Shown: in pieces, positions 9,427-39,297 of the stretch
Position numbering within the stretch: position 1 is the first letter of the stretch
How the letters are laid out: the number at the start of each line of letters is the position of its first letter
Origin: Candidatus Omnitrophota bacterium
Lineage (GTDB): Bacteria; Omnitrophota; Gorgyraeia; Tantalellales; Tantalellaceae
Length of the DNA: 64,000 nucleotides
Direction of reading: 5' to 3'
NCBI GenBank assembly: GCA_043811395.1
Contig: JBDRNE010000115.1
Span: 12,212-76,211, forward strand
Made by a program: the position numbers and the translations under genes
The notes under the pieces: generated by a model
The model's database searches: none
Seen by the model: the letters and a program-made list of their open reading frames with translations, nothing else
What the model was told of the DNA's origin: nothing

Positions 9427-9433
9427 AGAAATT

Positions 9434-9550
9434 GGGGTCAGCCCTTGAAATGTGAAACTTGCTAATTTATTTACCTTAAGTTTCACATTTCAAGGGCTGA
9501 CCCCAAAGTACACTTTTCAAGGGCTGACCCCAAAGTACACCAAAGTACAT
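9434..9550. repeat. Long palindromic repeat element R1: a 27-bp stem hairpin plus tandem partial copies
   Basis: GGGGTCAGCCCTTGAAATGTGAAACTT (9434-9460) pairs with its reverse complement at 9478-9504. The direct repeat CAAGGGCTGACCCCAAAGTACAC occurs at 9491-9513 and 9518-9540. A second copy of the element lies at 39298-39395. Confidence 0.8.
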
Positions 9551-9576: not shown

Positions 9577-9605
9577 TTGACAGAATAAATCATAGTGTAT
9601 ATAAT
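9577..9605 (+). promoter_or_regulatory. Consensus sigma-70 promoter upstream of lysS (TTGACA-17-TATAAT)
   Basis: TTGACA at 9577-9582, a 17-nt spacer, and TATAAT at 9600-9605. Confidence 0.6.
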
Positions 9606-9690: not shown

Positions 9691-11121
9691 ATGGAAGAAA
9701 AAAATGGGTTAGTTGAACAACGGTACAAAAATCTCGAAAAAATACAAAATCTGGGGGTCGATCCTTTTGGTAGAAGCATTTCCGGGATTCAAAGTATTCT
9801 TGCCGTTAAACGCGATTATAGCGAAGGCATGAAAGCTAAGATTGCCGGCAGAATAATGGCCAGCCGGGTACATGGGAAAAGTGTTTTTATGGATGTAAAA
9901 GATTTTGACGGCCGCATGCAGGTTTATTTTCGGCAGGATGTTGTCGGGGAGATTCCTTTTGATATGCTAAAAAGTTTGGATATAGGTGATATTGTAGCTC
10001 TCGAAGGCGAGCTTTTTAGGACAAGAACAGGGGAAGATACTGTTCTTGTAAAAGAATATGTTGTTTTGGCGAAGTCATTAGTGCCTCTTCCTGAAAAATG
10101 GCATGGTCTTAAAGATGTAGAAACAAGGTATCGGCAGAGGTACGTTGACTTAATAGTAAACGATACTGCCCGAGAGAAGTTTAAAACAAGATTAAGTCTT
10201 ATACGGAACATTAGAGAAACGCTTGACGTACGCGGTTTTTTAGAAGTGGAAACGCCCATGATGCATCCTATTCCGGGAGGGGCCGCGGGAAAACCTTTTA
10301 AAACACATCATCAGGCCTTGGACATGGATTTATATCTTCGTATCGCGCCGGAAATATATTTAAAAAAACTTTTAGTGGGTGGGTTTGAAAAAATTTTTGA
10401 AATTAACCGATCTTTTCGAAATGAAGGTATTTCTGCAAGGCATAACCCGGAATTTACAATGATGGAAGTGTATGAGGCTTATTCTGATTGCGAAGGCATG
10501 ATGAAGCTTACTGAAGACATCGTTCGCCGCGCGGCAAAAACTTTACTTGGCACAGAAAAATTTACATACCAGGGTAAGGATATTGATTTAACGGTTTGGA
10601 AACGGGTTTCATTCGCGGAACTTATGGAAGCAAATTTTGGGATTAAAGTTAGTGATCCTTTAAATGAGTGGATATCTAAGCTTAAAACAAAAGGCGTTGT
10701 AATCGAAGGCGATAAAGTCAGTAAAACTCAGATTCTTAATATTGTGGGTGAATTGGTTGAACCCGAGGCAGGAACACACCCAGTATTTGTTGTGGATATG
10801 TTCAAGGAACTAAGCCCGTTGGCTAAAGAGAAAGAGAATTCTCCCGGTATTGCTGACAGATTTGAACTTTATATGGGGGGAATGGAAATTGCCAACGCGT
10901 ATTCTGAACTAAACGATCCTATAGATCAACGAAAGAGATTTGAAGAGCAGGTCAAAGCGGATCCCTCTGCAATGATGGATGAAGATTTTATTCGGGCGCT
11001 TGAGTATGGCATGCCGCCTGCCGGTGGGTTAGGAATAGGCATTGATCGGCTTGCAATGATTTTTACGGATTCGGCAAATATTCGCGAAGTTATTCTTTTT
11101 CCGCATATGCGACCAGAGTAA
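9691..11121 (+). CDS. lysS: Lysyl-tRNA synthetase, class II
   Basis: It has an N-terminal OB-fold anticodon-binding region and class II motifs (FRNEGIS..., GGLGIGIDRL). The ATG follows AAAGGG. Confidence 0.9.
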   Translation: MEEKNGLVEQRYKNLEKIQNLGVDPFGRSISGIQSILAVKRDYSEGMKAKIAGRIMASRVHGKSVFMDVKDFDGRMQVYFRQDVVGEIPFDMLKSLDIGDIVALEGELFRTRTGEDTVLVKEYVVLAKSLVPLPEKWHGLKDVETRYRQRYVDLIVNDTAREKFKTRLSLIRNIRETLDVRGFLEVETPMMHPIPGGAAGKPFKTHHQALDMDLYLRIAPEIYLKKLLVGGFEKIFEINRSFRNEGISARHNPEFTMMEVYEAYSDCEGMMKLTEDIVRRAAKTLLGTEKFTYQGKDIDLTVWKRVSFAELMEANFGIKVSDPLNEWISKLKTKGVVIEGDKVSKTQILNIVGELVEPEAGTHPVFVVDMFKELSPLAKEKENSPGIADRFELYMGGMEIANAYSELNDPIDQRKRFEEQVKADPSAMMDEDFIRALEYGMPPAGGLGIGIDRLAMIFTDSANIREVILFPHMRPE

Positions 11122-11133
11122 TTTACATATGTT

Positions 11134-11211
11134 GTATGTCGTACATAGCATATCGCCTCAAAAGCCTTAAATTCTATATACGATGTACGACATACGATAC
11201 ACGACATACGA
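11134..11211 (+). promoter_or_regulatory. Inverted repeat plus tandem direct repeat immediately upstream of lolC/E (operator-like)
   Basis: GTATGTCGTACAT (11134-11146) pairs with ATGTACGACATAC (11183-11195). The direct repeat ACGACATACGA occurs at 11187-11197 and 11201-11211. Confidence 0.4.
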
Positions 11212-11216
11212 CAATT

Positions 11217-12477: not shown

Positions 12478-13179
12478 ATGTTAAAGGCGCAGAATGTTAC
12501 AAAAATATTTAAACAGGGGATAAAGGACGTTATCGTTGTAAAAGATGCTAACTTGCATATTGCTAAAGGTGAGAGAGTATATGTATACGGTCCTTCCGGA
12601 GCCGGAAAATCTACACTGTTGCACATACTTGGAGGATTAACCCGTCCTACGGCAGGAAACGTGGCGCTTGAGGGAGAAAAGAATATATATGAAATTTCCC
12701 AAAACAGAAGAAGTTATATTCGAAATAGGTATTTTGGTTTTGTCTTTCAGTTTTTTTATCTTTTACCGGAGTTAAATGTACTGGAAAACGTTATGTTGCC
12801 GGCTGTTATTAGAGGGGAAGAAACTAAAAAAACCGTCAGGAATCGCGCTAGTGAACTTTTGGAAATTGTGCGTATGGATAAAAGAGTTTTGCATAGGCCA
12901 GCACAGCTTTCCGGAGGAGAATCCCAGCGTGTGGCGGTTGCTCGAGCATTAATAAATTTACCGGATATTTTGTTTTGCGATGAACCTACCGGTAATTTAG
13001 ATTCAGAATTACGCCAGGAAATCTATAGTCTGATAAAAAACGTTAGTGAAAAACGTAAAATGAGTGTTGTAATAGTTTCTCATCATTTGCTAAATGATGA
13101 TTTTTTTCATAGTGAATATTTAATGATGGATGGTAAAATAGAAAAGGAAAAAATCATTAAAGAGAATTATGTCGGATAA
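12478..13179 (+). CDS. lolD: ABC transporter ATP-binding protein (LolD-like)
   Basis: Walker A (GPSGAGKST), ABC signature (LSGGESQRV) and Walker B (ILFCDEPT) are present. It lies immediately downstream of the LolC/E permease. Confidence 0.85.
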   Translation: MLKAQNVTKIFKQGIKDVIVVKDANLHIAKGERVYVYGPSGAGKSTLLHILGGLTRPTAGNVALEGEKNIYEISQNRRSYIRNRYFGFVFQFFYLLPELNVLENVMLPAVIRGEETKKTVRNRASELLEIVRMDKRVLHRPAQLSGGESQRVAVARALINLPDILFCDEPTGNLDSELRQEIYSLIKNVSEKRKMSVVIVSHHLLNDDFFHSEYLMMDGKIEKEKIIKENYVG

Positions 13180-13292
13180 ATATTCGATGGTACGAATGAT
13201 GGAATTTTAGTGACATATTGAAAACTTACAGTATTAATTTTATTATGATAGATTTGTCAGTATACTCATAGATGACAGAAAGAAGGGTAATA

Positions 13293-14165
13293 ATGGGATC
13301 AAAGATATTTTTAAACGGAAACTTTGTTAATTCAGAAGACGCGGTAATATCTGTGTTTGACCATGGGGTGCTTTATGGTGATGGCGTTTTTGAGGGGATA
13401 AGGTCATATAATAGAAGAGTCTTTCGGCTTAAAGAGCATTTGGACAGGTTATATGCCAGCGCGGAGGGCATTAAACTGCAAATACCGATGTCTAAAAAGG
13501 ACTTCGGGGCTAAAATTTTGGAAACAGTTAAAATAAACGATTTAAATGACGCTTATATAAGAGTTGTTGTTACAAGGGGCATCGGGGATTTGGGTTTGGA
13601 TCCGCGTAAATGTAAAATTGCTACAGTGTTTATTATCGCCGGAAAAATAGCGTTGTATCCGGCTGATTATTATAGAAACGGATTGGCTATCGCAATAGCC
13701 AAAACAAAAAGAAATCATCCTGATTCGATTAACCCGAAAATAAAATCGTTAAATTATATCAATAACATTTTAGGTAAAATCGATGCCATAGAAGCTGGAA
13801 CCCAAGAAGCTTTAATGCTTTCAATCGACGGGTATGTCGCGGAGTGTACGGGTGATAATATTTTTATTGTTCGTGGTGGAAAACTTATAACTCCGCCTAG
13901 TGAAGTCGGCGCTCTTGAAGGAATAACTCAGAAAGCAGTTATTGAGCTTGCGGGAAAGAAAGGCATATTAGCGGAATATAAAAGAATGTTAATTGATGAA
14001 CTTTTTACCGCGGAAGAATGTTTTCTGACTGGTACAGCGGCAGAGATAATTCCAGTGGTGAAAATAGGGGATAAGGTTATTGGTGACGGGAATCCCGGAA
14101 GCATTACTCAGGCCTTACGGGAACAGTTTATAGAGTTAACCCTGAACGAAGGTGTTGAATATTAG
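13293..14165 (+). CDS. Class IV PLP aminotransferase (branched-chain / D-amino acid aminotransferase)
   Basis: It carries the fold-type IV signature (FDHGVLYGDGVFEGIRSY). The ATG at 13293 has an RBS (GAAGGG); the ATG at 13272 has none. Confidence 0.8.
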   Translation: MGSKIFLNGNFVNSEDAVISVFDHGVLYGDGVFEGIRSYNRRVFRLKEHLDRLYASAEGIKLQIPMSKKDFGAKILETVKINDLNDAYIRVVVTRGIGDLGLDPRKCKIATVFIIAGKIALYPADYYRNGLAIAIAKTKRNHPDSINPKIKSLNYINNILGKIDAIEAGTQEALMLSIDGYVAECTGDNIFIVRGGKLITPPSEVGALEGITQKAVIELAGKKGILAEYKRMLIDELFTAEECFLTGTAAEIIPVVKIGDKVIGDGNPGSITQALREQFIELTLNEGVEY

Positions 14166-14215: not shown

Positions 14216-14722
14216 ATGAGGTGTAACATATGTGGGCGACGGGAAGCAACGGTACATTTGACTGAAGTAGTTAATGAGAAAGTGACAAAACTTCATCTTT
14301 GTGAAGAATGTGCTAAAGCCAAAAGTGATGAGATGCAGTCGCATTTCGGATTAGCTGAACTTTTGTCCGGGCTGGTGGATTTTAACCCGTCCGTATCGGA
14401 TGGACAACTAAAGAAAAACCTGACTACGAAGTGTCCGGTTTGCGGGATGACTTACTATGATTTTCAGAATACCGGACGGCTTGGATGCGGTACCTGTTAC
14501 GAAACGTTTTCAGATAAACTGAGTGAACTTTTGAAAAAAATTCATGGCGCAGACAGGCATACCGGAAAAGTTCCTTATAGAACCGCGAAAACTGCTAAAA
14601 CTGTGGTAAATGAAAAATCTATTAAAGATTTAAAAGATGAACTGAGCGAACTGGTTAAAAAAGAAGAATTTGAAAAAGCAGTTTTCTTAAGGGATAAAAT
14701 TAAAGATCTTGAAGAAAAGTAG
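14216..14722 (+). CDS. mcsA: McsA-like zinc-finger/UVR-domain protein (McsB activator)
   Basis: There are CxxC pairs (CNICG..CEEC and CPVCG..CGTC) and a C-terminal UVR motif (FEKAVFLRDKIKDLEE). It sits immediately upstream of mcsB. Confidence 0.75.
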   Translation: MRCNICGRREATVHLTEVVNEKVTKLHLCEECAKAKSDEMQSHFGLAELLSGLVDFNPSVSDGQLKKNLTTKCPVCGMTYYDFQNTGRLGCGTCYETFSDKLSELLKKIHGADRHTGKVPYRTAKTAKTVVNEKSIKDLKDELSELVKKEEFEKAVFLRDKIKDLEEK

Positions 14723-14763
14723 AGCAACTTGGATAACCTTTTCAAAAATAAAAGAGGAAATTT

Positions 14764-15816
14764 ATGAAATTAAATGATTTTTTATGCAAAAAAAGCGAAT
14801 GGCTTAAAGCTTCTGGTCCGAAGTCTAACGTTGCGATATCTACACGTGCGCGAGTAGCGCGCAATGTTGCGGGTCATTTGTATTTTAACCGTGCTGATAA
14901 TACTGAAAGAAAAAGAACACTTCAGACATTGGTGAGCGCTGTAAAGAAGACGAAAATGTTGAAAAAATCGCTCTATTTGCCTATCAACGATCTCTCAAAG
15001 CTGGATAGAAATTTTTTAGTCGAAAGACAGTTAATGAGCCGAGAGCATATGGTAGACGTGGAGCATAAGGGGTTGGTAGTTGAGGAAAATGAAATAGTAA
15101 GCCTTATGCTGAATGAAGAAGACCATTTAAGGATACAGGTTATCCAATCAGGATTTAGCATTATGGATACCTGGCGTATTTTGGATGAAATTGATACAGA
15201 GTTGGCTAACTATGTGTCTTTTGATTATTCGGATAAATTCGGATATTTAACGTCATGTCCTACAAATACAGGCACGGGTTTAAGGGCTTCAGTTATGTTA
15301 CATTTGCCGATTCTATCTATGACCGGGCAGATCGAAAATGTATTTAACGCAATTTCAAAACTAGGCCTGACAATGAGAGGGTTTTACGGCGAAGATACTG
15401 AAGCGGCGGGTGATTTTTTTCAAATTTCCAATCAGGTGGCGTTGGGGCATTCTGAAATGGATGTTTTGGATAATTTGGAAAGGATACTAAATAAAATTAT
15501 AATTCGTGAGGAAGCAAGCAGAAAAGAGCTTTTTTTGAAAAAGAAAGAAGAAATAAGCGACAGGATATTTCGGTCGTATGGCACTCTAAAAAGCGCGCGG
15601 ATAATAACTTCAAGTGAAACAATTAAATTGTTATCGTCTATAAGGTTAGGAATTGATCTTGGCTTGATTAAAGATATTAGTATCGAGAAAGTAAATGAAG
15701 TTTTGTTGTGTATGCAACCGGCGCATTTACAGAAAATAAACGGCCGGGAAATTTCTCCATACGAAAGAGACGTGAAGAGGGCAGACTTAATACGCGAAAA
15801 ACTTGTAAAGAAATAA
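14764..15816 (+). CDS. mcsB: Protein arginine kinase McsB (ATP:guanido phosphotransferase)
   Basis: The phosphagen-kinase active-site motif CPTNTGTGLR is present. The RBS is AAGAGGAAA. Confidence 0.9.
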   Translation: MKLNDFLCKKSEWLKASGPKSNVAISTRARVARNVAGHLYFNRADNTERKRTLQTLVSAVKKTKMLKKSLYLPINDLSKLDRNFLVERQLMSREHMVDVEHKGLVVEENEIVSLMLNEEDHLRIQVIQSGFSIMDTWRILDEIDTELANYVSFDYSDKFGYLTSCPTNTGTGLRASVMLHLPILSMTGQIENVFNAISKLGLTMRGFYGEDTEAAGDFFQISNQVALGHSEMDVLDNLERILNKIIIREEASRKELFLKKKEEISDRIFRSYGTLKSARIITSSETIKLLSSIRLGIDLGLIKDISIEKVNEVLLCMQPAHLQKINGREISPYERDVKRADLIREKLVKK

Positions 15817-15915
15817 CCAGAGAATAGGCCTTTCAATAGCAAAATAAGGCAAGGATTATTATAAGATCTAACGTGAAAAACACTGGATCAAAGATATGAA
15901 GTTTTGATATGTTTC

Positions 15916-15937
15916 GGACAGGCACAGGGACCTGTCC
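15916..15937 (+). promoter_or_regulatory. GC-rich hairpin GGACAGG-N8-CCTGTCC in the 174-bp mcsB-clpC spacer
   Basis: The stems are perfect 7-bp pairs. They are embedded in the 13-mer TTTCGGACAGGCA, which also occurs at 37039-37051. Confidence 0.4.
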
Positions 15938-15990
15938 CTACATCAATAAATCAGCTAATCGGTTAACCAAAGAAGTAGGAGGAGTAAAGA

Positions 15991-18441
15991 ATGCCAGCAT
16001 TTAACAGATTTACAGAAAGGGCGAGAAAAGTTATTCTTTTAGCTAAAGAAGAAGCAAAAAATCTTAACCATGATTATATCGGGACGGAACATGTCTTATT
16101 GGGCTTGATTAAAGAAGGCGAAGGTGTAGCCGCCGCGGTATTGACTAGTCTTGGTATGGATTCTGATAAAATTCGCAGTGAAGTTGAAAAACTTGTTCAG
16201 CCGGGTTCGTCAAAAATTACGGATAGAGATATACCTTTTACGCCGCGCGCAAAGAAAGTTATTGAACTTGCGATGGATGAAGCGCGTAATCTTGGACATA
16301 ACTATATCGGAACAGAGCATATATTATTGGGTCTTATACGCGAAGGCGATGGCGTGGCAAGCCAAGTTCTCTTGAATGTGGGGCTTGATCTTAAAACTGT
16401 GAGAGATGAGGTTTTGAGTCTGTTGGGATCATCGGTGCCCGGATATAGCGCGCTTTCAGACTCGGACACGAAACGTAAAAAACGGACGAAAACTCCGGCT
16501 TTGGATTCTTTCGGCAGGGATCTTACGGAAATGGCAAGCCAAGATGAGTTGGATCCTGTGATTGGTAGAGATAAAGAAATACAAAGGGTTATTCAGATTC
16601 TAAGTAGGCGTAAAAAGAATAATCCTATTCTAATAGGGGAAGCCGGTGTTGGAAAAACTGCTATTGTTGAAGGGTTGGCGCAGAAGATAGTCGCGGGAGA
16701 TATTCCTGAAGTCTTGAAGGGGAAACGTCTTTTAATCCTGGATTTAGCAATGATGATTGCTGGGACAAAATATCGCGGACAGTTTGAGGAGCGGATAAAA
16801 GCTGTTATGAAAGAAATAAAGGACACACCTGAGGTTATGGTTTTTATTGATGAAATCCATACTCTTGTGGGAGCGGGCGGCGCGGAAGGCGCGATAGATG
16901 CGTCAAATATTTTAAAACCTTCCTTACAAAGAGGAGAAATTCAGTGTATTGGAGCTACGACATTAGATGAATATCGAAAAAATATTGAGAAAGATCCGGC
17001 TTTGGAAAGAAGGTTTCAGCCGGTAACGGTTGACCCTCCAAGCGTTGAAGAAACTATAAAAATATTAAATGGGTTACGGGATAAATATGAGGCTCATCAT
17101 AAGATAAAATTTTCAGATAAAGCGTTGGAAGCCGCGGCGAAAATGTCGGATCAATACATTAGCGGTCGGTTTCTGCCGGATAAAGCCATTGATCTTATTG
17201 ATGAAGCCGGATCCAAAGCTAAACTGTCAACGATGGTAATGCCTAAAGAGTTAACTGAAGAAGAAAAAAAAATAGAAGAAATTAAACGCGAAAAAGAAGA
17301 AGCAGTTAAAGAGCAGGATTTTGAAAAAGCCGCGCGGGTCAGAGATTCGGAACGTAAAGCTAGGGAGGAGCTGGAACAGAAAAAAGTTGAATGGAAAAGC
17401 GGAAAGAATAAACAAGATGTTATAGTTTCCGATGAAGATATAGCGTCTATTGTTTCAGATTGGACGGGAATTCCGTTAATTAAAGTTGAAGAAAAAGAAT
17501 CAGAAAAATATCTCAGGTTGGAAGAGGGGTTAAAAGCGCGAGTAGTCGGCCAGGATGAGGCTATAACAGCTATCGCTCACGCGGTCAGACGTTCACGCGC
17601 GGGAATAAAGGATCCCAATCGGCCTATAGGAACTTTTATTTTTATGGGGCCTACGGGCGTAGGAAAAACGTTATTAGGCAGGAAACTGGCTGAAATAATG
17701 TTCGGGGATGAGGATGCTATTATCCAAATCGATATGTCTGAATACATGGAGAAGTTCAATGTGTCCAGATTGGTCGGTGCGCCTCCCGGGTATATTGGGT
17801 ATGAGGAAGGCGGCCAGTTAACAGAAAAAGTAAGAAGACGTCCTTATGCGGTAGTGCTTCTTGATGAAATTGAAAAAGCTCATCCGGATGTTTTTAATAT
17901 ACTTCTTCAGCTTTTAGATGAAGGCCGTCTTACGGATTCTTACGGCAGGAAGGTGAGTTTTAAAAATACAATACTCATTATGACGTCCAATATCGGCGCG
18001 AATTTACTTAAAAAAACAGGGGCGATAGGATTTAAAACTCAGGAGGAAGAAGAAGGGTATAAAGAAATGAAGGGAAGGCTTTTGGAAGCCGTAAAGAAAA
18101 CTTTTAAACCGGAATTTTTGAATAGAGTTGATGATGTTATTGTGTTCAGAAGTTTGACAAGAGCCGATCTGAAGCAGATAGTCGAGATAGAAATAAAAGA
18201 AGTGGCGGAACGTTTAAAAGAAAAAAGCATTGAGTTAATTCTTGATAGCAAGGCGAAAGTTTTTCTTATTGAAAGAGGGTTTGATAAGATTTTTGGAGCC
18301 AGACCCCTTAAAAGGATTATTCAGCGATATCTTGAAAATCCTTTGGCTGAGGAAATTTTAGCGGGAACATTTAAAGACGGGGCTAAAATTAAAGTAACCG
18401 CGCAAAAAGGAAAAACGGAATTAAAATTTGTAAAGGGATAA
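15991..18441 (+). CDS. clpC: Clp ATPase ClpC (class III stress-response AAA+ chaperone)
   Basis: Two Clp_N repeats are followed by AAA-1 (GEAGVGKT), a middle UVR motif, AAA-2 (GPTGVGKT) and a ClpB_D2-small domain. The RBS is AGGAGGA. Confidence 0.95.
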   Translation: MPAFNRFTERARKVILLAKEEAKNLNHDYIGTEHVLLGLIKEGEGVAAAVLTSLGMDSDKIRSEVEKLVQPGSSKITDRDIPFTPRAKKVIELAMDEARNLGHNYIGTEHILLGLIREGDGVASQVLLNVGLDLKTVRDEVLSLLGSSVPGYSALSDSDTKRKKRTKTPALDSFGRDLTEMASQDELDPVIGRDKEIQRVIQILSRRKKNNPILIGEAGVGKTAIVEGLAQKIVAGDIPEVLKGKRLLILDLAMMIAGTKYRGQFEERIKAVMKEIKDTPEVMVFIDEIHTLVGAGGAEGAIDASNILKPSLQRGEIQCIGATTLDEYRKNIEKDPALERRFQPVTVDPPSVEETIKILNGLRDKYEAHHKIKFSDKALEAAAKMSDQYISGRFLPDKAIDLIDEAGSKAKLSTMVMPKELTEEEKKIEEIKREKEEAVKEQDFEKAARVRDSERKAREELEQKKVEWKSGKNKQDVIVSDEDIASIVSDWTGIPLIKVEEKESEKYLRLEEGLKARVVGQDEAITAIAHAVRRSRAGIKDPNRPIGTFIFMGPTGVGKTLLGRKLAEIMFGDEDAIIQIDMSEYMEKFNVSRLVGAPPGYIGYEEGGQLTEKVRRRPYAVVLLDEIEKAHPDVFNILLQLLDEGRLTDSYGRKVSFKNTILIMTSNIGANLLKKTGAIGFKTQEEEEGYKEMKGRLLEAVKKTFKPEFLNRVDDVIVFRSLTRADLKQIVEIEIKEVAERLKEKSIELILDSKAKVFLIERGFDKIFGARPLKRIIQRYLENPLAEEILAGTFKDGAKIKVTAQKGKTELKFVKG

Positions 18442-18500
18442 GTTCTGCTTTGTGAAAAGTATTATCTTGAGTGGATAAAATCTTAACTGGATGGGTTTTT

Positions 18501-19313
18501 ATGAGAATAAAAAGATTAATAAAAATTTTTGTCCAAAAGACCCTTATTAGTGCTAAAACCTGGCTAGAAGACTGTTTTAAATATATCGGCGGTCTTTTTA
18601 TTCTTCTTGCGCAGACGGTTGTAGGGATATTTTCCGCGCGTCCCAGAAAACGCCAGGTTTTGGAACAAATGAATAAAATTGGTGTTGCAAGTTTTCCGAT
18701 AGTATTTCTGATAAGTTTTTTTACAGGTATAGTGTTAGCCTTACAAAGCGCTTATCAGCTGACGCAGATGTCGGCTGAAATGTATATAGCTTCGTTGGTT
18801 GCGCTTTCTATTACGCGGGAATTAGCTCCGGTACTAACTGCTTTAATTGTTGCTGGCCGATGTGGTGCGGCTATAACCGCGGAACTTGGGACAATGAAAG
18901 TTACAGAACAAATCGAGGCGTTAGAAACATTGTCGGCTAACCCTGTTGAGTATTTAGTTACGCCGAGGTTTATTGCTATGATTATCATGGTTCCGCTTTT
19001 AACCGTGTATGCTGATTTTTTTGGCATAGCGGGCGGGTATCTCATAGGTATAAGCAAATTGCATATAACGCATTCAATGTACATGAAAATGACCTGGGAT
19101 CCATTGTCAGTGAAAGACGTTATGACGGGATTGATTAAAAGTGTATCTTTTGCCGCGATTATATGTATCATTTCTTGCTATGAAGGAATAAATTCTCAAG
19201 GTGGCGCGGAGGGGGTGGGACGCTCTACAACATCAAGCGTTGTGAGGAGTTTCATTCTGATCATTATTGCAGATTGTTTTTTTACCGGACTTTTTTATTT
19301 TGTAGCGCATTAA
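18501..19313 (+). CDS. mlaE: MlaE-family ABC permease (phospholipid/lipid asymmetry transport)
   Basis: It is an MlaE/TTG2B-type 5-TM permease. The track start at 18471 is GTG; the first ATG is at 18501. Confidence 0.8.
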   Translation: MRIKRLIKIFVQKTLISAKTWLEDCFKYIGGLFILLAQTVVGIFSARPRKRQVLEQMNKIGVASFPIVFLISFFTGIVLALQSAYQLTQMSAEMYIASLVALSITRELAPVLTALIVAGRCGAAITAELGTMKVTEQIEALETLSANPVEYLVTPRFIAMIIMVPLLTVYADFFGIAGGYLIGISKLHITHSMYMKMTWDPLSVKDVMTGLIKSVSFAAIICIISCYEGINSQGGAEGVGRSTTSSVVRSFILIIIADCFFTGLFYFVAH

Positions 19314-19374
19314 AAATAGAGAATATTGAGGACGAAATAGCCGCGTTTTAGGCTAGGATTATAAAAGGTTGATT

Positions 19375-20136
19375 ATGATTAAGTTGAAAGATGTAAGCAA
19401 ATCATTTAATAAACAGCTTATTTTAAAAAATCTTAATCTTGAAGTAAAAAAAGGCGAGTCATTAGTGATTATAGGTAGGTCCGGTTGTGGAAAAAGCGTT
19501 TCATTAAAGCATATGATAGGTCTTGTAAGGCCGGATGCGGGATCTGTTCTGGTGGATGGAACGGATATTTCGACGCTTAAAAGTGAAGAGCTTGATCGTA
19601 TGCGGTTAAAGTTCGGTATGCTTTTTCAGGGTGCCGCTCTTTTTGATTCGTTAACTGTATTGGAAAACGTCGGGTTTCAGCTTTTTGAATATGCGGACAT
19701 GGCATTTGTGCAGATAAAACGTCGGGTATCAGAGTGCCTTGGAATGGTAGGCTTGCAGGGTATAGAAAATATGAAGCCTGCCGCGCTTTCCGGAGGCATG
19801 AAAAAGAGAGTTGGTTTGGCGCGGGCGATAATCATGAGCCCAGAAATTATTTTATTTGATGAACCGACGACTGGAGTCGATCCGGTAACCGGAGATGTTA
19901 TTAACAAGCTTATAAGGCATTTGCATAATACGCTTAAAACGACTTCAATAACCGTAACGCATGACATGAAAAGCGCGTATCAAATTGCGGATAGGATAGC
20001 CATGCTTTATGATAAGCAGATAATTGGGATCGGAACGCCTGATGAAATTAAAAATTCAAAAAATCCAATTGTTAAACAATTTATAAATGGCGACGCGGAA
20101 GGACCTATAACTCAGGGGAATGGTTCCAGATTTTAA
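19375..20136 (+). CDS. mlaF: MlaF-family ABC ATP-binding protein
   Basis: Walker A (GRSGCGKS), signature (LSGGMKKRV) and Walker B (ILFDEPT) are present. The track start at 19369 is TTG; the ATG at 19375 follows AAAAGG. Confidence 0.85.
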   Translation: MIKLKDVSKSFNKQLILKNLNLEVKKGESLVIIGRSGCGKSVSLKHMIGLVRPDAGSVLVDGTDISTLKSEELDRMRLKFGMLFQGAALFDSLTVLENVGFQLFEYADMAFVQIKRRVSECLGMVGLQGIENMKPAALSGGMKKRVGLARAIIMSPEIILFDEPTTGVDPVTGDVINKLIRHLHNTLKTTSITVTHDMKSAYQIADRIAMLYDKQIIGIGTPDEIKNSKNPIVKQFINGDAEGPITQGNGSRF

Positions 20137-20149
20137 AAGGGGGAAATGT

Positions 20150-20842
20150 ATGTATAGAAATGAAAAACTGGAATTAAAAGTGGGACTCTTTATGGGGGTC
20201 GGTGTATTTTTAATGTTTTTAATAGTTTTTTCCATCAGCGATATGTATGTTCTCAAAAAAGGGTATAACCTTTTTTCAGTGTTTGACATGGTTAACGGAA
20301 TTACCGCAAATGCTCCGGTTAGGTTAGCTGGGGTCCATGTGGGAGACATAAAAAAAGCGGAAATTTATTTTGATGAAACACTGGGAAAACCTCGGGTTAA
20401 ACTGGATATAAGAATTAATGGTGATGTAAAGATTTCAAGCGATGCAGTCGCAAGAATAAACACGTTAGGCCTTTTAGGAGAACAGTATTTGGAAATAACT
20501 CCGGGCAAGTCCAAACAGTTTTTAGAATACGGAGATAAATTGTTATCCAAGAATCCGATAAATGTTGGTTCTGAAATGGAAAAAATGAAAGAATTGATGC
20601 AAAGCACTTCTCAGCTTATACAGCATATTGAGCGCGGAGAGGGCACGCTTGGCAAACTTCTGACGGATGACACTTTGTATAATGATCTCACCGTTATTTT
20701 TGGAAGGCTAAAAAGAGGGGAAGGAACACTCGGCAAACTTCTTGTAGAAGAAGAAGTATATGATGATATGGAGGAATTTACGGAGGACATAAAAAAACAT
20801 CCGTGGAAACTTTTACACAAAAGTTCGAGCAATGAAAAATAA
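20150..20842 (+). CDS. mlaD: MlaD-family MCE-domain substrate-binding protein
   Basis: It has an N-terminal TM anchor and an MCE domain (PVRLAGVHVGDI). The C-terminus carries the internal repeat GEGTLGKLL twice. The ATG at 20150 follows AAGGGGG. Confidence 0.8.
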   Translation: MYRNEKLELKVGLFMGVGVFLMFLIVFSISDMYVLKKGYNLFSVFDMVNGITANAPVRLAGVHVGDIKKAEIYFDETLGKPRVKLDIRINGDVKISSDAVARINTLGLLGEQYLEITPGKSKQFLEYGDKLLSKNPINVGSEMEKMKELMQSTSQLIQHIERGEGTLGKLLTDDTLYNDLTVIFGRLKRGEGTLGKLLVEEEVYDDMEEFTEDIKKHPWKLLHKSSSNEK

Positions 20843-20909: not shown

Positions 20910-21947
20910 ATGACAGTAAAATTTATTAGAGTCTTTTTTGTGGTCTTGAGCGCGGTATGTGGATATTATTTATTGCCGCTATTGCCGGTTGTTCCGGCAT
21001 GTTCGCCTCTTATCGGCGCGGGGATAGGGATGGCGAGTTCGCTTATTCTTATAATTATGGAAGCAAAACTAAAAGGTGTTTCTTTGAGGGACCTTTCAGC
21101 TAGTCTAGTTGGGCTTGGTTTCGGCTTTTTTATGGCGTGGATGATTACATTAATATTGCGGTTTATTCCCATGGATGAAATTTTTTATTCAGTGCTCAGA
21201 ACAGTTTTTACTTTAACTTTTTGTTATTTAGGTATGGTAATATCAATAAAAGGAAAAGACGAATTTAATCTTGTAATTCCTTATGTAAGATTTTCTCGGG
21301 AAGATAGAAGAAGCCAGATATATCTTTTAGATACCAGTGTTGTTATTGACGGTAGAATCGCCGGTATATGCGAAACAGGTTTTTTAGAGGGGAAACTCAT
21401 GGTGCCGCGTTTTGTGCTAAAAGAACTTCAGCAGATAGCAGATAGCGCTGATGATGCGAAACGCAATAGAGGCAGACGCGGGTTGGATATGTTGGAACGG
21501 CTTAAAACGGTAAAAGGCGCGGAAATTATAATACACGAAGAACCTTTACCCGAGATTAAGGAAGTGGATGCTAAGCTTGTTCGTCTGGCAAAAATACTGG
21601 ATTGCCCAATTATTACGAACGATTTTAATTTAAATAAAGTTGCTAGACTGGAAGGCGTAGCGATTCTTAATATTAACGATCTTGCTAATTCTATGCGACC
21701 TGTGGTTTTTCCGGGAGAACAACTTAACGTTTATATTCGAAAAGAAGGAAAAGAAAGAAACCAGGGAGTTGCTTTTATGGATGACGGTACAATGATAGTC
21801 ATCGATAACGCGAAAAAATATATTGGTAAAAACGTTAATATTGCCATAACAAGCGTTTTGCAAACGTCAGCCGGGAAAATGATATTTGCGAATTTGATAG
21901 AAAAAAACAATTCACAAAAAAGTAGAGCTCCTCATAGAAACGCGTAA
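20910..21947 (+). CDS. Membrane-anchored PIN and TRAM domain protein (YacL-like)
   Basis: The N-terminus has TM helices. The PIN domain contains YLLDTSVVIDGR and the C-terminus is TRAM-like. As in Bacillus, the gene is adjacent to isp genes. Confidence 0.75.
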   Translation: MTVKFIRVFFVVLSAVCGYYLLPLLPVVPACSPLIGAGIGMASSLILIIMEAKLKGVSLRDLSASLVGLGFGFFMAWMITLILRFIPMDEIFYSVLRTVFTLTFCYLGMVISIKGKDEFNLVIPYVRFSREDRRSQIYLLDTSVVIDGRIAGICETGFLEGKLMVPRFVLKELQQIADSADDAKRNRGRRGLDMLERLKTVKGAEIIIHEEPLPEIKEVDAKLVRLAKILDCPIITNDFNLNKVARLEGVAILNINDLANSMRPVVFPGEQLNVYIRKEGKERNQGVAFMDDGTMIVIDNAKKYIGKNVNIAITSVLQTSAGKMIFANLIEKNNSQKSRAPHRNA

Positions 21948-21971
21948 AGGCCAAAGGCAGTGATTCCGACA

Positions 21972-22454
21972 ATGAAGGAAATGAGAATAGGTGTTGGATA
22001 TGACATACATAAATTAGATAGTGGCTGTAAGATGGTTTTGGGCGGGATTAACCTTGCTAGCTCAAAAGGTTCTCTTGGACATTCAGACGGTGATGTTTTA
22101 ATCCACGCTATTTGCGATGCTATACTTGGCGCTTTAGGCGAGTGTGACATAGGGATTATGTTTCCTGACACGAACAGTAAATATAAAAATGCTGATAGTG
22201 TAGAGTTTCTATATGAAGTTAAAAATGTAATGCGGCGGAACGGGTGCCGGATAATAAATTTGGATTCGGTTGTTATTTGTGAAGAACCTAAAATAGCGCC
22301 ATATCGTGAAAAAATAATTAATAAGTTAAGTGATGTTTTAGAAGTGTCTTCTGACAGAATAAATGTTAAGGGGAAAACGTCTGAGAAATTAGGTGATATT
22401 GGCGCAGGCAATGCTATTGAATCTCAGGTGGTAGTTCTTTTAGAAAAAGGATAG
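21972..22454 (+). CDS. ispF: 2-C-methyl-D-erythritol 2,4-cyclodiphosphate synthase
   Basis: The MRIGVGYDIHKL and HSDGDVLIHAICDAILGA motifs are present. The track start at 21960 is GTG; ATGs lie at 21972 and 21981. Confidence 0.9.
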   Translation: MKEMRIGVGYDIHKLDSGCKMVLGGINLASSKGSLGHSDGDVLIHAICDAILGALGECDIGIMFPDTNSKYKNADSVEFLYEVKNVMRRNGCRIINLDSVVICEEPKIAPYREKIINKLSDVLEVSSDRINVKGKTSEKLGDIGAGNAIESQVVVLLEKG

Positions 22455-22536
22455 GGGTAGTCGAAGAATTTGGGATATAACTATAAAAGTGTTCGTAATT
22501 TTTGACATTATGTATATTTTACGATGGAGATGAAAT

Positions 22537-23253
22537 ATGAATTGGATATATGGAATTATTGGGGTAGGGGTTGGTTATTATATTGTCGTGCGTGCGGTTT
22601 TTTCTGAAGCAATAGAAACCGCTTTGCAAAGAGACCCTGCCGCGTTAAATTCTTTGACAATAATTTTTACTTATTCAGGGTTTCATGCTCTTGTTTTATA
22701 TAGAATAGCGCATTTTTTGAAAAAGGAATGGAATATTCCTTTTTTTCCGCGGTTTATTTCACAATTCGCGAAATTTGTAACAGGCATTGAAATACATCCG
22801 GGGGCAAGTATTGGTAAAGGGTTTTTTATTGATCATGGCATGGGGGTTGTTATAGGGGAAACAACCATAATAGGTGATAACGTAACATTATTTCAGGGAG
22901 TTACTTTGGGTGGAACCGGGAAAGAAAGAGGCAAACGCCATCCGACTCTGAAAAACGATATTGTAGTAGGCGCTGGAGCGAAAGTGCTGGGAAATATTAC
23001 CATAGGAAACAATGTGTCAATCGGAGCGAACGCTGTAGTTCTTCGGGATGTTCCGAGTAATTCAACTGTGGTTGGCGTACCCGGACGTGTAGCTAAGAAA
23101 AGTGGACGGCGTATTCCCGGCGGGATTAATCTTGATTATACATCATTGCCCGATCCCATGCAAAAACAGCTTGAAAAACTACAACATGAGATAGACCATA
23201 TTGAACATGAAATAGAAGATTATCACAGTAGGAAAGACAAAGAAGACGAATAA
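22537..23253 (+). CDS. cysE: Serine O-acetyltransferase (short form, hexapeptide-repeat)
   Basis: The sequence GIEIHPGASIGKGFFIDHGMGVVIGETTIIGDNVTLFQGVTLGG is present. The RBS is GGAGA. Confidence 0.85.
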   Translation: MNWIYGIIGVGVGYYIVVRAVFSEAIETALQRDPAALNSLTIIFTYSGFHALVLYRIAHFLKKEWNIPFFPRFISQFAKFVTGIEIHPGASIGKGFFIDHGMGVVIGETTIIGDNVTLFQGVTLGGTGKERGKRHPTLKNDIVVGAGAKVLGNITIGNNVSIGANAVVLRDVPSNSTVVGVPGRVAKKSGRRIPGGINLDYTSLPDPMQKQLEKLQHEIDHIEHEIEDYHSRKDKEDE

Positions 23254-23307
23254 ATGGGTGGCGGATGACAACTCTCATTTAATCATTTCGCCGAAGGTAA
23301 AATTGTT

Positions 23308-23329
23308 ATCCCGGACGAAGAGCCGGGAT
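23308..23329 (+). terminator. Candidate intrinsic terminator after cysE
   Basis: The ATCCCGG/CCGGGAT stem is followed by an AT-rich tract. Confidence 0.35.
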
Positions 23330-23517
23330 CTATTTAAAATGTGAAATTTTATTATTAAATCATCGTCGAGAGGTTTTATTGAAAATTCGATTGTAAAAAA
23401 ACCGTGTCCGGCTTAAACAGGTTCTCGTCCGCCAGAAACAGTCTGCGGAACTCGCCTGACACAAAAACCAAACGCCTTTTGCATGAATGTAGATACAATG
23501 AAAATAGCTGAAGAATA

Positions 23518-24972
23518 ATGATTACAATATACAATACACTTACGCGTCGGAAAGAAGAATTTAAGCCTTTAGAAGAGGGTAAAGTGCGGATGTACGTGTG
23601 CGGGCCTACGGTTTATGATGTGCCGCATATTGGACACGCGCGTAGCAGTTATATTTTTGACTGGATACGAAGATATTTAGAGTATTCGGGTTTTCGTGTG
23701 TGTTATGTCCGGAATGTTACGGATATAGATGACAAAATTATAAAAAAAGCCGCAGGGGAACTAAAAAAACGAAAAATAACCGGAACAGATGTTTTGTGCC
23801 GGAAAGTTAAAGAAGTCGCGGATTATTATTTAGAAATATATCATAGTCAAATGTCAGAAATGGGTATTAACGGTCCGGATTTAGAACCCAAAGCAACAGA
23901 AAACATTTCGCAAATGATAGAGTTTATAAGTGTTTTGATAGAAAAGGGATGTGCTTATGAGGTGGAAGGGAATGTATATTTTAGTGTTGAAAATTTTGCG
24001 GGATACGGGAAACTGTCTAATCGAGATAAAGAACAGATGATGAGCGCTGTTCGTATTGATCTGGATAAGAGAAAAAAATACCCGCTTGACTTTGCGTTAT
24101 GGAAGTCTGTCAAGAAAGACGAGCCTTTTTGGGAAAGCCCCTGGGGAAAAGGACGTCCTGGATGGCATATTGAGTGTTCAGTAATGAGTACCAGTATATT
24201 TGGAGCACATTTTGATATACATGGAGGTGGATTGGATTTAATTTTTCCGCATCATGAAAATGAAATTGCGCAGGCAGAAGCGGCAACAGGCAAAGATTTT
24301 GCCAATTATTGGATTCATAACGGGCTTTTGACTGTAGAAAACGAAAAAATGGCAAAGTCTTTGGGGAATTATATTACCATTACGGATTTTTTGAAAAAAT
24401 ATAAAGATCCAGATTTTTTAAAAATAGCTTTTTTAAATAGTCATTACAGAAGCCCTATGGATTATAGTGATGAGCGAATGGAAGAGTCACGCCGGGTTAA
24501 GGAACGGATTGTGGTATTTTTTGATAAGGTTAATAAACTGCAAAGTAGGTGTTCTGGTGAGTTTAACGGAGAGTTGAAAGTAAAAGAAGCTATAGCTGTA
24601 ATGAAGAAAAAGTTTAAAGAAGTTATGGATGATGATTTTAATACCGCAGTGGCAATGTCAGTTATGTTTGAAACCGTAAAAATTGGAAATGAGCTATTGG
24701 CTGACAAAAATACGCCGGACGGTGAAAAAAAAGCGAATTTAAAAACTGTTCAAGATACAATTTTAGAGTTTGCCGGTATTTTTGGATTAAAATTTGACGG
24801 GTCTGAAATTGACAAGAAGAAACAAAAGGAAATAGAAGAATTGGTTTCGCAGAGAATCGAAGCAAGAAAGAATAAGGATTATGCTACAGCGGATAGGATA
24901 CGGGATAAACTGACAGCTAAGGGAGTAGTACTTGAAGATACTCCAGAAGGGCCTGTTTGGAGAGTGAAATGA
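23518..24972 (+). CDS. cysS: Cysteinyl-tRNA synthetase
   Basis: It has HIGH (HIGHARS), KMSKS (KMAKSLGN) and a C-terminal DALR/anticodon domain. Confidence 0.95.
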   Translation: MITIYNTLTRRKEEFKPLEEGKVRMYVCGPTVYDVPHIGHARSSYIFDWIRRYLEYSGFRVCYVRNVTDIDDKIIKKAAGELKKRKITGTDVLCRKVKEVADYYLEIYHSQMSEMGINGPDLEPKATENISQMIEFISVLIEKGCAYEVEGNVYFSVENFAGYGKLSNRDKEQMMSAVRIDLDKRKKYPLDFALWKSVKKDEPFWESPWGKGRPGWHIECSVMSTSIFGAHFDIHGGGLDLIFPHHENEIAQAEAATGKDFANYWIHNGLLTVENEKMAKSLGNYITITDFLKKYKDPDFLKIAFLNSHYRSPMDYSDERMEESRRVKERIVVFFDKVNKLQSRCSGEFNGELKVKEAIAVMKKKFKEVMDDDFNTAVAMSVMFETVKIGNELLADKNTPDGEKKANLKTVQDTILEFAGIFGLKFDGSEIDKKKQKEIEELVSQRIEARKNKDYATADRIRDKLTAKGVVLEDTPEGPVWRVK

Positions 24973-25610
24973 AAAAAGGTTTTTTTATTACTTTTGATGG
25001 GCCTGAAGGGAGCGGGAAAAGTACCCATTCAGTTAGATTGAAAGACGATCTTACTTTAGACGGATATGATGTTATTTATACAAGAGAACCCGGTGGGACT
25101 TTACTCGGCCAAAAGATACGGGACGTTTTGTTGAAAAATGAGGATATTAAACCTGGAAAACAGGCGGAGCTATTACTTTTTGAGGCAGATAGGGCTCAAC
25201 ATGTGGAAGAAATAATCAAACCAGCTTTGGACAAAGGAAAAACCGTTATTTGTGACCGTTTTAACACAGCTACTTTTGCTTATCAGGGATACGGTGCTGG
25301 TATGGATATAAATATGATAAGAAGCATAGATGATTTCGTAACAAACGGAATTTTTCCTGATATTACGCTGATTTTAGATATTGAGGTTAATATGGGGCTT
25401 TCGCGTGCCGGAAAGAGATGCTCTGCCGATAAAATGGAAAAAAGGCCGTATGAATTTCATGAAAGAGTAAGACAGGGGTACCTTGATATCGCGAAAAAGT
25501 TTCCTAAAAAGGTAAAGGTTATACAAGTAAAAAACGATATAGACGAGACATATAAATTTATAAAAAATGAGGTGTATGATTTTATTGGGCGGAATAAAAG
25601 GTCAGGATAA
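24969..25610 (+). CDS. tmk: Thymidylate kinase
   Basis: The P-loop is FDGPEGSGKST. The ATG at 24969 follows GGAGA and overlaps the cysS stop codon (ATGA). The track start at 24957 is TTG. Confidence 0.9.
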   Translation: MKKGFFITFDGPEGSGKSTHSVRLKDDLTLDGYDVIYTREPGGTLLGQKIRDVLLKNEDIKPGKQAELLLFEADRAQHVEEIIKPALDKGKTVICDRFNTATFAYQGYGAGMDINMIRSIDDFVTNGIFPDITLILDIEVNMGLSRAGKRCSADKMEKRPYEFHERVRQGYLDIAKKFPKKVKVIQVKNDIDETYKFIKNEVYDFIGRNKRSG

Positions 25611-26568
25611 TGCCGTTAAATATCTTTCGAATTGCGTTAAGTCTGGAAGGATAGCAGGAAGTTTTCTGTTTTCGGGGCCCGAAGGCATAGGTCGGGCGCT
25701 TACCGCAAAAAGTTTTATTAAAGCATTAATGTGCCGAAAAAAAACAGAAGAAAACTCTACTTGCGAGGGATGTTTTACTTGCGCGAAGATTGATAAAGGT
25801 ACTCATCCTGATATTGTATGGATAAAACCTGAAAAAAATAAAAATATCAAAATAGAAGAGATAAGGAAAGTTAAAGAAGTATTGAGTTTGAAACCTTATA
25901 CAGCGGGGCTTAGCGTATGTATTGTTGAAGATGCGCATATGATGACCCAGTCAGCCGCGAATGCTTTATTAAAAATTTTAGAGGAACCGCCCAAAACAGC
26001 TGTACTAATTCTTATCACCAGCCGAAAAGAACTTTTGCTTCAGACTGTTGTGTCGAGGTGTTCGGAAGTAAGGTTTTCGTGTTTATCGGTTGAACTTGCG
26101 AAGGGCATTATTCTGGAGAAGTCTAATCTTACGGAAAGTGAGGCGTATTTTCTTGCCTGTTTAGCTCAAGGGTCTCCCGGAAAAGCTCTTGAAATGATGA
26201 ACGAAGATATTGGCGAAAGAAAAAGCGAATGTTTGGCAATGCTTGAACAAATTATTGATGAAGATAGTTCTGTGTGTTTAGACTGGCCGAAGGAAGGCAA
26301 GGATTATCTTATGGAAGACATTGAAATGATGATAATGTTTTTTCGCGATGTGGTTATGGGGAAAGAAGGATTAAAAAGCTCTGTATTTGACCGGAACGTT
26401 TTGGAGTCAAAAATATACCAGTTTTTTAAGAAATGCGGTATAAATGAAATATACCGGACAATTGAAAAGTTGATAGATATTAAACGCGCGTTGGCGGGGA
26501 ATGTAAACCCTAAATTGGTTGCGCAAATTTTGCCGGAAAGTATTAAAACCGCGAGTTGTGTGGGGTAA
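25567..26568 (+). CDS. holB: DNA polymerase III delta-prime subunit
   Basis: The AAA+ clamp-loader pattern FSGPEGIGR is present with a Zn-module (CEGCFTC). An alternative ATG lies at 25576. Confidence 0.85.
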   Translation: MRCMILLGGIKGQDNAVKYLSNCVKSGRIAGSFLFSGPEGIGRALTAKSFIKALMCRKKTEENSTCEGCFTCAKIDKGTHPDIVWIKPEKNKNIKIEEIRKVKEVLSLKPYTAGLSVCIVEDAHMMTQSAANALLKILEEPPKTAVLILITSRKELLLQTVVSRCSEVRFSCLSVELAKGIILEKSNLTESEAYFLACLAQGSPGKALEMMNEDIGERKSECLAMLEQIIDEDSSVCLDWPKEGKDYLMEDIEMMIMFFRDVVMGKEGLKSSVFDRNVLESKIYQFFKKCGINEIYRTIEKLIDIKRALAGNVNPKLVAQILPESIKTASCVG

Positions 26569-26629
26569 CGCTCAAAGCGGAGCAAAAATTACTTCAATGT
26601 ATATACTAAGGCTGAGGAGATTATAAAAA

Positions 26630-27439: not shown

Positions 27440-27441
27440 GT

Positions 27442-34794: not shown

Positions 34795-34861
34795 TTGGCG
34801 GAGGAGAGAAGAGTAAATTATTAAAACAGGGAATGTGAAGATACAGTAGGGGTGGGCTCTT

Positions 34862-35956: not shown

Positions 35957-35980
35957 AATATGCCGTTAGGAGGGGGTACT

Positions 35981-37012: not shown

Positions 37013-37128
37013 AAGGGAAGAGGCTTGTGTTTGTTTTGGTACATAGATTTTCGGACAGGCAAGAGCCATTTGGTTTATGCGTTCGGTTCAAACTTGTTTC
37101 TAACTGTCAGGCGGGTTGGTGAAATCTT

Positions 37129-38019: not shown

Positions 38020-38041
38020 TGATTAGTAAAGAGGCTGTTAA

Positions 38042-38506: not shown

Positions 38507-38608
38507 GAGCTAAAAGCTTTTAAAACAGCTGTTTTAGATTGGGGGAGGCAAGGATGGCTCTTTTCTGCAGAAAAATTTTTTTTTAACACAAATTGTAAAG
38601 AGAGAAGA

Positions 38609-39295: not shown

Positions 39296-39297
39296 AT

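Follow-up and report, generated by a model that had tools for sequence, protein, structure and literature searches.

The mcsA, mcsB and clpC genes in the window

We analysed a 64-kb stretch of one Candidatus Omnitrophota genome (contig JBDRNE010000115.1; this whole stretch is hereafter called the window), in which the genes for McsA, the protein arginine kinase McsB and the unfoldase ClpC lie side by side. The features at this locus are as follows (nt, nucleotides; positions are those of the window).

14216-14722, + strand: mcsA, zinc-finger activator of McsB; 168 amino acids, identified by alignment with the chain 8WTB_B and by the Pfam UVR domain
14764-15816, + strand: mcsB, protein arginine kinase; 350 amino acids, PF00217 and NF002194
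15817-15990, + strand: mcsB-clpC spacer; 174 nt, among the longest of 47 Omnitrophota-type spacers
15887-15908, + strand: ATCAAA-N10-TTTGAT inverted repeat (arms 15887-15892 and 15903-15908); weak, at chance level
15916-15937, + strand: GGACAGG-N8-CCTGTCC hairpin (arms 15916-15922 and 15931-15937); stable, with no U-tract after it
15991-18441, + strand: clpC, AAA+ unfoldase; 816 amino acids, Pfam domains and match to B. subtilis ClpC

A sequence-only reading of the same DNA had described the three genes as contiguous and ordered as in Bacillus, with a 174-bp spacer carrying two inverted repeats ahead of clpC. This description is accurate. The open reading frames (ORFs), the family matches and the structure matches agree that all three genes are intact, and both repeats lie at the positions given above. 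The same McsB protein and an identical spacer are found in two independent assemblies (GCA_018814505.1 and the Logan assembly of SRR27458547). Therefore, the spacer is not an assembly artefact.

McsA matches the B. subtilis McsA chain 8WTB_B from end to end (residues 1-167, E value 1.3e-32). In this alignment, both Cys4 motifs are present (C3/C6/C29/C32 and C73/C76/C91/C94), and the second corresponds to C81/C84/C99/C102 of the B. subtilis protein. The C-terminus is a UVR/coiled-coil region, with the Pfam UVR domain at residues 133-167.

McsB matches PF00217 with an E value of 7e-63 and passes the NCBIfam model NF002194 (409 bits, cut-off 385). It aligns over its full length with the McsB structures from B. 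subtilis and Geobacillus, is 42% identical to B. subtilis McsB, and has the C-terminal dimerisation domain PF27454 (McsB_C) on record. The kinase motif CPTNTGTGLR, which the sequence-only reading had pointed out, is present as SCPTNTGTGLR and aligns with the motif of the B. subtilis enzyme. We counted the conservation of McsB residues over 48 Omnitrophota sequences. The NEED motif (NEEDH in this protein), C167 in CPTNxGT and R176 are invariant in these sequences, as is the phosphoarginine receptor site R337/D338/R341. The roles of the NEED motif and of the catalytic cysteine in CPTNxGT have been described (PMC11046695), as has the role of the receptor site R337/D338 (PMC8370763).

ClpC consists of two Clp_N domains, AAA, AAA_lid_9, a UVR middle domain (residues 425-459), AAA_2 and ClpB_D2-small according to Pfam. 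It scores 1061 bits against B. subtilis ClpC, and its best PDB matches are ClpC chains, with ClpB and ClpA scoring lower. The equivalents of the B. subtilis pocket residues T7, E32, K85 and E106 are kept; E32 and E106 have been reported as crucial determinants of phosphoarginine recognition (PMC12583610). Moreover, the N-domain motifs (both copies of GTEH, RFTER and TPRAKKV) are identical to those of B. subtilis. The ClpP-docking loop reads AIGF, an IGF loop that aligns with YVGF (VGF) of B. subtilis ClpC. The ATG of clpC is preceded by a strong AGGAGG ribosome-binding site.

The gene array around mcsA-mcsB-clpC is fixed in Omnitrophota

A scan with one genome per species gave 331 relatives. 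The best 80 of these 331 loci were analysed (901 kb), each read as a stretch of up to about 13 kb around mcsB; they come from Omnitrophota, Planctomycetota, Elusimicrobiota and Nitrospirota together with a few oddly labelled metagenome-assembled genomes (MAGs). The neighbours of the module in the window are listed below.

9577-9605, + strand: candidate sigma-70 promoter with perfect consensus, TTGACA-N17-TATAAT; 86 nt upstream of lysS
9691-11121, + strand: lysS, lysyl-tRNA synthetase, at the head of the conserved array; found in synteny in related loci, with 49-92% identity
11136-12428, + strand: lolC/E-type lipoprotein-release permease; TIGR02212 365 bits (cut-off 362), Pfam MacB_PCD and FtsX
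12478-13179, + strand: lolD-like ATP-binding cassette ATPase; best NCBIfam model TIGR02211 LolD, 240 bits, below the cut-off of 308; syntenic in relatives
13272-14165, + strand: ilvE, branched-chain aminotransferase; NF006185 420 bits (cut-off 363)
18471-20842, + strand: mlaE-mlaF-mlaD, beginning 29 nt after clpC; PF02405, PF00005 and PF02470, TIGR00056 above cut-off
20910-21947, + strand: PIN-TRAM membrane protein with a B. subtilis YacL-like architecture (PF01850 and PF01938), followed by ispF, cysE and cysS

The array lysS-lolCE-lolD-ilvE-mcsA-mcsB-clpC-mlaE-mlaF-mlaD-(PIN-TRAM) is present in all Omnitrophota-type loci (about 47), down to a McsB identity of 44%. The closest relatives of the McsB protein are proteins from Omnitrophota MAGs, with 89% identity for the top match and at least 60% for the others (at least 120 matches listed). 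Thus, the arrangement is not unusual: the same order is the norm across Omnitrophota, and McsAB together with a phosphoarginine-dependent ClpC in a diderm without CtsR has been published for Chlamydia trachomatis (PMC10128030, PMC11708050).

The mcsA-mcsB pair extends beyond this phylum and also occurs in many MAGs of Planctomycetota, Elusimicrobiota and Nitrospirota. Among the 80 loci, mcsA adjoins mcsB in 76, and in three of the remaining four mcsB abuts the contig end. In Planctomycetota, clpC follows mcsB in only two of about 30 loci, and three Planctomycetota-type loci (L046, L069 and L077) carry two tandem mcsA-like genes ahead of mcsB.

The labels of several MAGs are at odds with their gene content. 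Loci labelled 'Planctomycetia' (L006, L008, L019-L021 and others) have the full Omnitrophota array and cluster with Omnitrophota, and records labelled 'Alcaligenaceae' cluster with Planctomycetota. The loci with such conflicts also include L073, L075, L046 and L077.

In most Omnitrophota loci (24; for example, L002:8076-9629 and L004:9585-11102), a gene for a membrane-anchored protein of about 500 amino acids lies between clpC and mlaE. This gene is absent from the whole window. The protein matches no family in Pfam, apart from a weak hint of TamB for a shorter form in L063 (E value 0.003).

A candidate promoter with perfect consensus precedes lysS in every available locus

Promoters were scored as matches to the sigma-70 hexamers TTGACA and TATAAT out of 12. 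The site at 9577-9605 alone reaches 12/12 in the 64 kb of the window. All 32 Omnitrophota-type loci for which the region ahead of lysS is available (window included) have a perfect copy there, and none of them has a second perfect match on the plus strand. Its flanks are also conserved, as AATTAC[GA]TTGACA ... TATAATTG (for example, at L001:663, L003:570 and L040:446). No sigma-70-like site of at least 10/12 was found in any of 38 mcsB-clpC spacers or 35 ilvE-mcsA spacers. The intergenic gaps from lysS to cysS contain no intrinsic-terminator-like site, and the mcsB-clpC gap is as small as 2-19 nt in some relatives. Most likely, mcsA-mcsB-clpC would be co-transcribed with its housekeeping and envelope neighbours from the predicted strong constitutive promoter of lysS.

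In the deep-branching loci L049, L051, L063 and L068, the lysS ATG lies about 9 nt after the -10 box. This short distance suggests a leaderless lysS mRNA in these loci. Rfam searches of the lysS leader and of five related loci gave nothing meaningful; what they returned were generic hairpin matches to miRNA models, all below threshold, on a palindrome at 9430-9510.

The spacer between mcsB and clpC is not conserved

The sequence-only reading took the 174-nt spacer as a sign that clpC is regulated separately. We consider this improbable. In such a scheme, clpC would be controlled apart from mcsAB by the hairpin (as a partial terminator, a processing site or a stabiliser), by an ATCAAA/TTTGAT operator or by an internal promoter that departs from the consensus.

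The two repeats differ in weight. Of the dinucleotide shuffles made from the spacer, 41% yield a perfect 6-bp stem; the ATCAAA repeat, with a calculated stability of -3.4 kcal/mol, is thus unremarkable. The GGACAGG hairpin (-12.1 kcal/mol) has no second copy in the window, and only 0.3% of shuffles yield a perfect 7-bp stem with at least five G/C pairs. This hairpin is therefore more than a chance product, and it speaks for separate control of clpC, as does the gene's own strong ribosome-binding site. However, the spacer holds no promoter-like site of at least 9/12 and no intrinsic-terminator-like site, the hairpin was not called as a terminator, the fold of the whole spacer is unremarkable (z = -0.98), and Rfam gave no match on the spacer or the locus.

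Comparison with relatives points in the same direction. In the 47 Omnitrophota-type loci, between 2 and 354 nt separate mcsB from clpC (median 57 nt), so that about half of the relatives have a gap of 57 nt or less. Because the gap is usually short, the ancestral state was presumably a tight operon and the 174 nt of the window an expansion. The only relative that shares the spacer is L001, whose McsB is 89% identical: over roughly the first 110 nt, identity is about 90%, and this part, the retention of which favours separate control of clpC, includes the ATCAAA arms. The remainder of the L001 spacer is rearranged by insertions; L001 has an additional 40-nt palindrome, and two letters in the 5' arm of the hairpin are different. 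No further copies of the spacer were found in an exact-pattern scan of metagenome contigs.

A strong hairpin is present in most long mcsB-clpC spacers of relatives (9 of 15 with z <= -2), which would fit a role of structure at this position. However, these hairpins are unrelated in sequence, the lolD-ilvE, ilvE-mcsA and mcsA-mcsB gaps have hairpins of the same strength, and one palindrome is reused within a genome (L003 and L051). In addition, no k-mers are shared across species above shuffle level in the ilvE-mcsA, mcsB-clpC and lolD-ilvE spacers. On this comparison, the 174-nt spacer is a lineage-specific expansion with accumulation of palindromes and not a conserved regulatory element. The GC hairpin may affect mRNA stability or read-through locally.

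Neither CtsR nor its operators were found

In Bacillus, ctsR stands directly upstream of mcsA. The sequence-only reading had observed that no ctsR gene precedes mcsA in the window, and this is the case: ilvE occupies the position, as it does in all Omnitrophota-type loci. No CtsR domain was found in any ORF of at least 110 amino acids in the window. We ran phmmer with Geobacillus CtsR (from PDB 3H0D) and B. subtilis CtsR on the window and the 80 loci, translated in six frames. The best E value was 0.5, and the weak matches fell on McsB itself. In the 'Clostridia'-labelled loci L073 and L075, truA lies upstream of mcsA and there is no ctsR in these loci.

A search for CtsR heptad operators, which the sequence-only reading had suggested, was made with the tandem pattern (A/G)GTCAAA-NAN-(A/G)GTCAAA. 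There is no such operator at the mcsA-mcsB-clpC locus. The window contains one match with two mismatches, at 30861 inside a histidine-kinase gene, against 0.95 expected by chance; in the 901 kb of loci, no operator with one mismatch or fewer was found. Likewise, the regions ahead of mcsA and clpC, in the window and in the 80 loci, are free of CIRCE elements, HAIR elements and sigma-54 promoters, and the conserved array includes no regulator gene. Because neither the CtsR repressor nor its operators were detected at the locus, McsB is probably confined here to tagging proteins for degradation, as a kinase and adaptor, and would not serve as the switch of a CtsR heat-shock regulon.

McsB might have kept another transcription factor as a target, such as HrcA or the product of a ctsR-like gene at some other place in the genome; the module would then still be a stress switch in addition to a tagging system. 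For Gram-positive bacteria, PMC11046695 describes repressors of the heat-shock response as major targets of McsB, and our ctsR search covered 64 kb of this genome besides the related loci. However, the lack of CtsR operators, CIRCE and HAIR at this locus and at the 80 loci, together with the lack of a regulator in the array, makes such a second role rather unlikely.

The module appears to be an old feature of the phylum

In a neighbour-joining tree of McsB, the Omnitrophota sequences group together, apart from those of Planctomycetota and of three Firmicutes. The McsB protein of the window is 41-42% identical to Planctomycetota proteins and 35-42% identical to the three Firmicute proteins, B. 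subtilis McsB being at the upper end. In GC content and GC skew, the locus does not stand out from the remainder of the window. Because the separate grouping in the tree, the similar identities, the matching composition and the resemblance of the gene neighbourhood agree, we argue for a module that is old and would have been inherited vertically within the phylum.

A recent horizontal transfer from Firmicutes, with loss of ctsR on the way, would account for the Bacillus-like order mcsA-mcsB-clpC, and the authors of the Chlamydia work proposed that chlamydial mcsAB was acquired horizontally (PMC10128030). However, the Firmicute proteins are about as distant as those of Planctomycetota, the Omnitrophota sequences cluster, synteny is fixed across the phylum and the locus has the composition of its surroundings. 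A recent transfer is therefore very unlikely.

Proposed function and its meaning

By orthology to Bacillus, the zinc-finger protein McsA would bind and activate McsB, and McsB would place phosphate on arginine residues of misfolded or target proteins. The two phosphoarginine pockets of the ClpC N-domain would then catch the tagged proteins, and ClpC would unfold them and pass them to ClpP via its IGF loop. We consider it likely that the locus encodes a complete phosphoarginine degradation module, which is predicted to be phylum-wide, free of CtsR and co-transcribed with housekeeping genes, and in which the spacer ahead of clpC would not be a conserved switch.

An alternative, in which the McsB homologue would not be a protein kinase but a phosphagen (arginine) kinase acting on small molecules, is highly improbable. 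The PF00217 fold is common to arginine and creatine kinases, but the protein lacks the phosphagen-kinase N-terminal domain and has the McsB-specific PF27454, in which the residues of the phosphoarginine receptor are kept. In the loci counted above, its gene always accompanies mcsA and, in Omnitrophota, clpC. The protein scores 275-300 bits against the McsB structures of B. subtilis and Geobacillus and 194 bits against that of S. aureus, compared with about 90 bits for single-domain arginine kinases and 143-180 bits for two-domain taurocyamine/arginine kinase chains.

Several points weigh against the proposal of a complete, co-transcribed and vertically inherited degradation module. McsA scores 168 bits with its NCBIfam model, below a Bacillus-trained cut-off of 210, and McsB reaches 382 bits with the Bacillus-type model NF053707, under the cut-off of 500. 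Neither clpP nor a gene for a YwlE-type phosphoarginine phosphatase is present in the 64-kb window, and kinase activity, phosphoarginine binding and coupling to ClpP are predicted from conserved residues. The McsB tree carries no support values and includes three Firmicutes only, and promoters that depart from the consensus would escape the score out of 12. The GGACAGG hairpin, with its 0.3% chance frequency, and the approximately 90% identity of the spacer start in L001 allow a local role for the spacer.

The last of these points concerns the octamer of McsB. In B. subtilis, autophosphorylated R190 and R194 form a clamp that stabilises the closed McsB octamer, as part of a gated-cage regulation (PMC8370763). 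In the McsB of the window, R190 is replaced by G, and R194 by N or E depending on the alignment; none of the 48 Omnitrophota sequences has R at position 194. R190 is kept in only one of the three Firmicute sequences, and thus the clamp is not universal there either. Because the clamp is missing, gated-cage control of the Bacillus type may not apply to McsB in Omnitrophota.

Arginine phosphorylation as a degradation tag is still portrayed as a Gram-positive trait. An uncultured diderm phylum with a complete module in a fixed position, in which no CtsR was found, would be a natural case for McsB as a pure tagging kinase. A wider proposal, which we put forward tentatively and hold to be somewhat less probable than its opposite, is that the phosphoarginine-ClpC system is ancient and common to Firmicutes, Omnitrophota, Planctomycetota, Chlamydiota, Elusimicrobiota and Nitrospirota; in Omnitrophota it would still stand in a Bacillus-like gene neighbourhood (lysS upstream; yacL-like, ispF, cysE and cysS downstream) and be expressed constitutively from the invariant consensus promoter, as part of a housekeeping and envelope super-operon, with tagging as the ancestral function and CtsR as a later Firmicute addition. 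If this is true, phosphoarginine-ClpC degradation was not a Gram-positive invention, and the ancestral role of McsB was degradation tagging and not transcriptional signalling. The practical gain is modest: automatic annotation already gives these genes their correct names in public MAGs, and the biology is a prediction from orthology. Three points deserve to be retained, namely the fixed synteny across the phylum, the invariant lysS promoter and the missing octamer clamp.

Diderm background of the host

The sequence-only reading had listed LolCDE-like, MlaEFD and Kdo (3-deoxy-D-manno-octulosonic acid)/lipid A/heptosyltransferase functions in the window, and all three groups were recovered. The first consists of the LolCE permease, which exceeds its TIGR02212 cut-off, and the LolD-like ATPase. 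The second comprises MlaE, MlaF and MlaD, with TIGR00056 above cut-off. The third includes WaaA, LpxK and a lipid A acyltransferase, all three with Pfam matches, and GT9 heptosyltransferases, among which heptosyltransferase II scores above its NCBIfam cut-off. Judged by this gene content, the host background is genuinely diderm, with the cell plan of a lipopolysaccharide outer membrane.

Repeats in intergenic gaps and other observations

Two gaps of the window contain an element resembling a repetitive extragenic palindrome (REP), at 9432-9533 between ligA and lysS and at 39297-39388 between tsaB and alr. The element is built of perfect arms of 28-29 nt (TGGGGTCAGCCCTTGAAATGTGAAACTT), a 17-nt loop and the inverse arm; five arms were found against none expected by chance. 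An ORF for a Y1 (IS200-like) transposase lies at 1657-2319 on the minus strand. Its best NCBIfam model is the REP-associated tyrosine transposase (59 bits, cut-off 80), and it scores 20 bits with the IS200 model. This transposase may be the partner of the REP-like palindromes.

Between lysS and lolCE, inverted heptamer arrays (ATACGAC/GTCGTAT) occupy 11130-11213. In L003, the mcsB-clpC spacer contains a GC hairpin with very similar arrays on both sides (L003:7051-7192), and L003 reuses the hairpin CCGCCGGAGGCGGG...CCCGCCTCCGGCGG in three gaps of the gene array. Species-specific tandem heptamers together with hairpins seem to be typical of intergenic regions in Omnitrophota generally. The listed starts of lolCE (ATG at 11136) and alr (GTG at 39316) run into repeats and are likely too far upstream. 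The true start of lolCE is probably downstream of the repeat array at 11130-11213, and alr has an alternative ATG with a ribosome-binding site at 39418.

The plus strand has a very strong and uniform GC skew across the window (positions 1-64000; +0.14 to +0.30 per 2-kb window), and all real genes from 5219 to 63449 are on this strand.

Comparison with known systems

The first system for comparison is the class III heat-shock operon of Bacillus subtilis. The window shares with it the order mcsA-mcsB-clpC, three full-length orthologues and the catalytic, zinc-binding, phosphoarginine-binding and ClpP-docking residues. Unlike B. subtilis, the window has no ctsR and no heptad operators, the genes ahead of the module are ilvE and lolCE/lolD, McsB lacks the R190/R194 clamp, and the host is a diderm. 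The B. subtilis ctsR operon has six genes, ctsR-mcsA-mcsB-clpC-radA-disA (PMC10633939), and in the window mlaEFD follows clpC where radA-disA stand.

The resemblance of gene order may extend further. No literature was found on the extended gene order of B. subtilis. We take the B. subtilis map to have lysS upstream of the ctsR operon and yacL-like, ispF, cysE and cysS genes downstream, as in the window. Other strings of the window (20910-29007 and 33418-39295), namely tmk-holB-PSP1(yaaT-like)-metG with TatD and thiL-like-tsaE-tsaB, are presumably also ordered as in B. subtilis. The TatD of the window is fused to a radical-SAM domain.

The second system is the mcsA-mcsB pair of Planctomycetota. 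These bacteria are also diderm, their McsB is 42-48% identical to that of the window and mcsA is adjacent. Unlike in Omnitrophota, clpC is usually not adjacent, and some loci have tandem mcsA copies. Literature searches for Omnitrophota with ClpC and for McsB with Planctomycetes gave nothing relevant.

The third system is that of Chlamydia trachomatis, with McsA (CT676), McsB (CT675) and ClpC. It belongs to the Planctomycetes-Verrucomicrobia-Chlamydiae (PVC) group and, like the present host, is a diderm that keeps McsAB and ClpC. The marking of proteins for ClpC-ClpP, most likely the only role of McsB in Omnitrophota, is now being studied there. Chlamydia has retained McsAB, and its ClpC-ClpP2P1 degrades only arginine-phosphorylated casein in vitro (PMC10128030, PMC11708050); these two papers describe no CtsR. 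The gene arrangements differ, as far as they can be compared by description: chlamydial mcsAB lies apart from clpC on the chromosome and is flanked by tRNA genes (PMC10128030), whereas the three genes of Omnitrophota are contiguous within a fixed housekeeping array. Thus, the combination of McsAB and ClpC without CtsR in a diderm is already known and published for Chlamydia, and the Omnitrophota locus supports that work.

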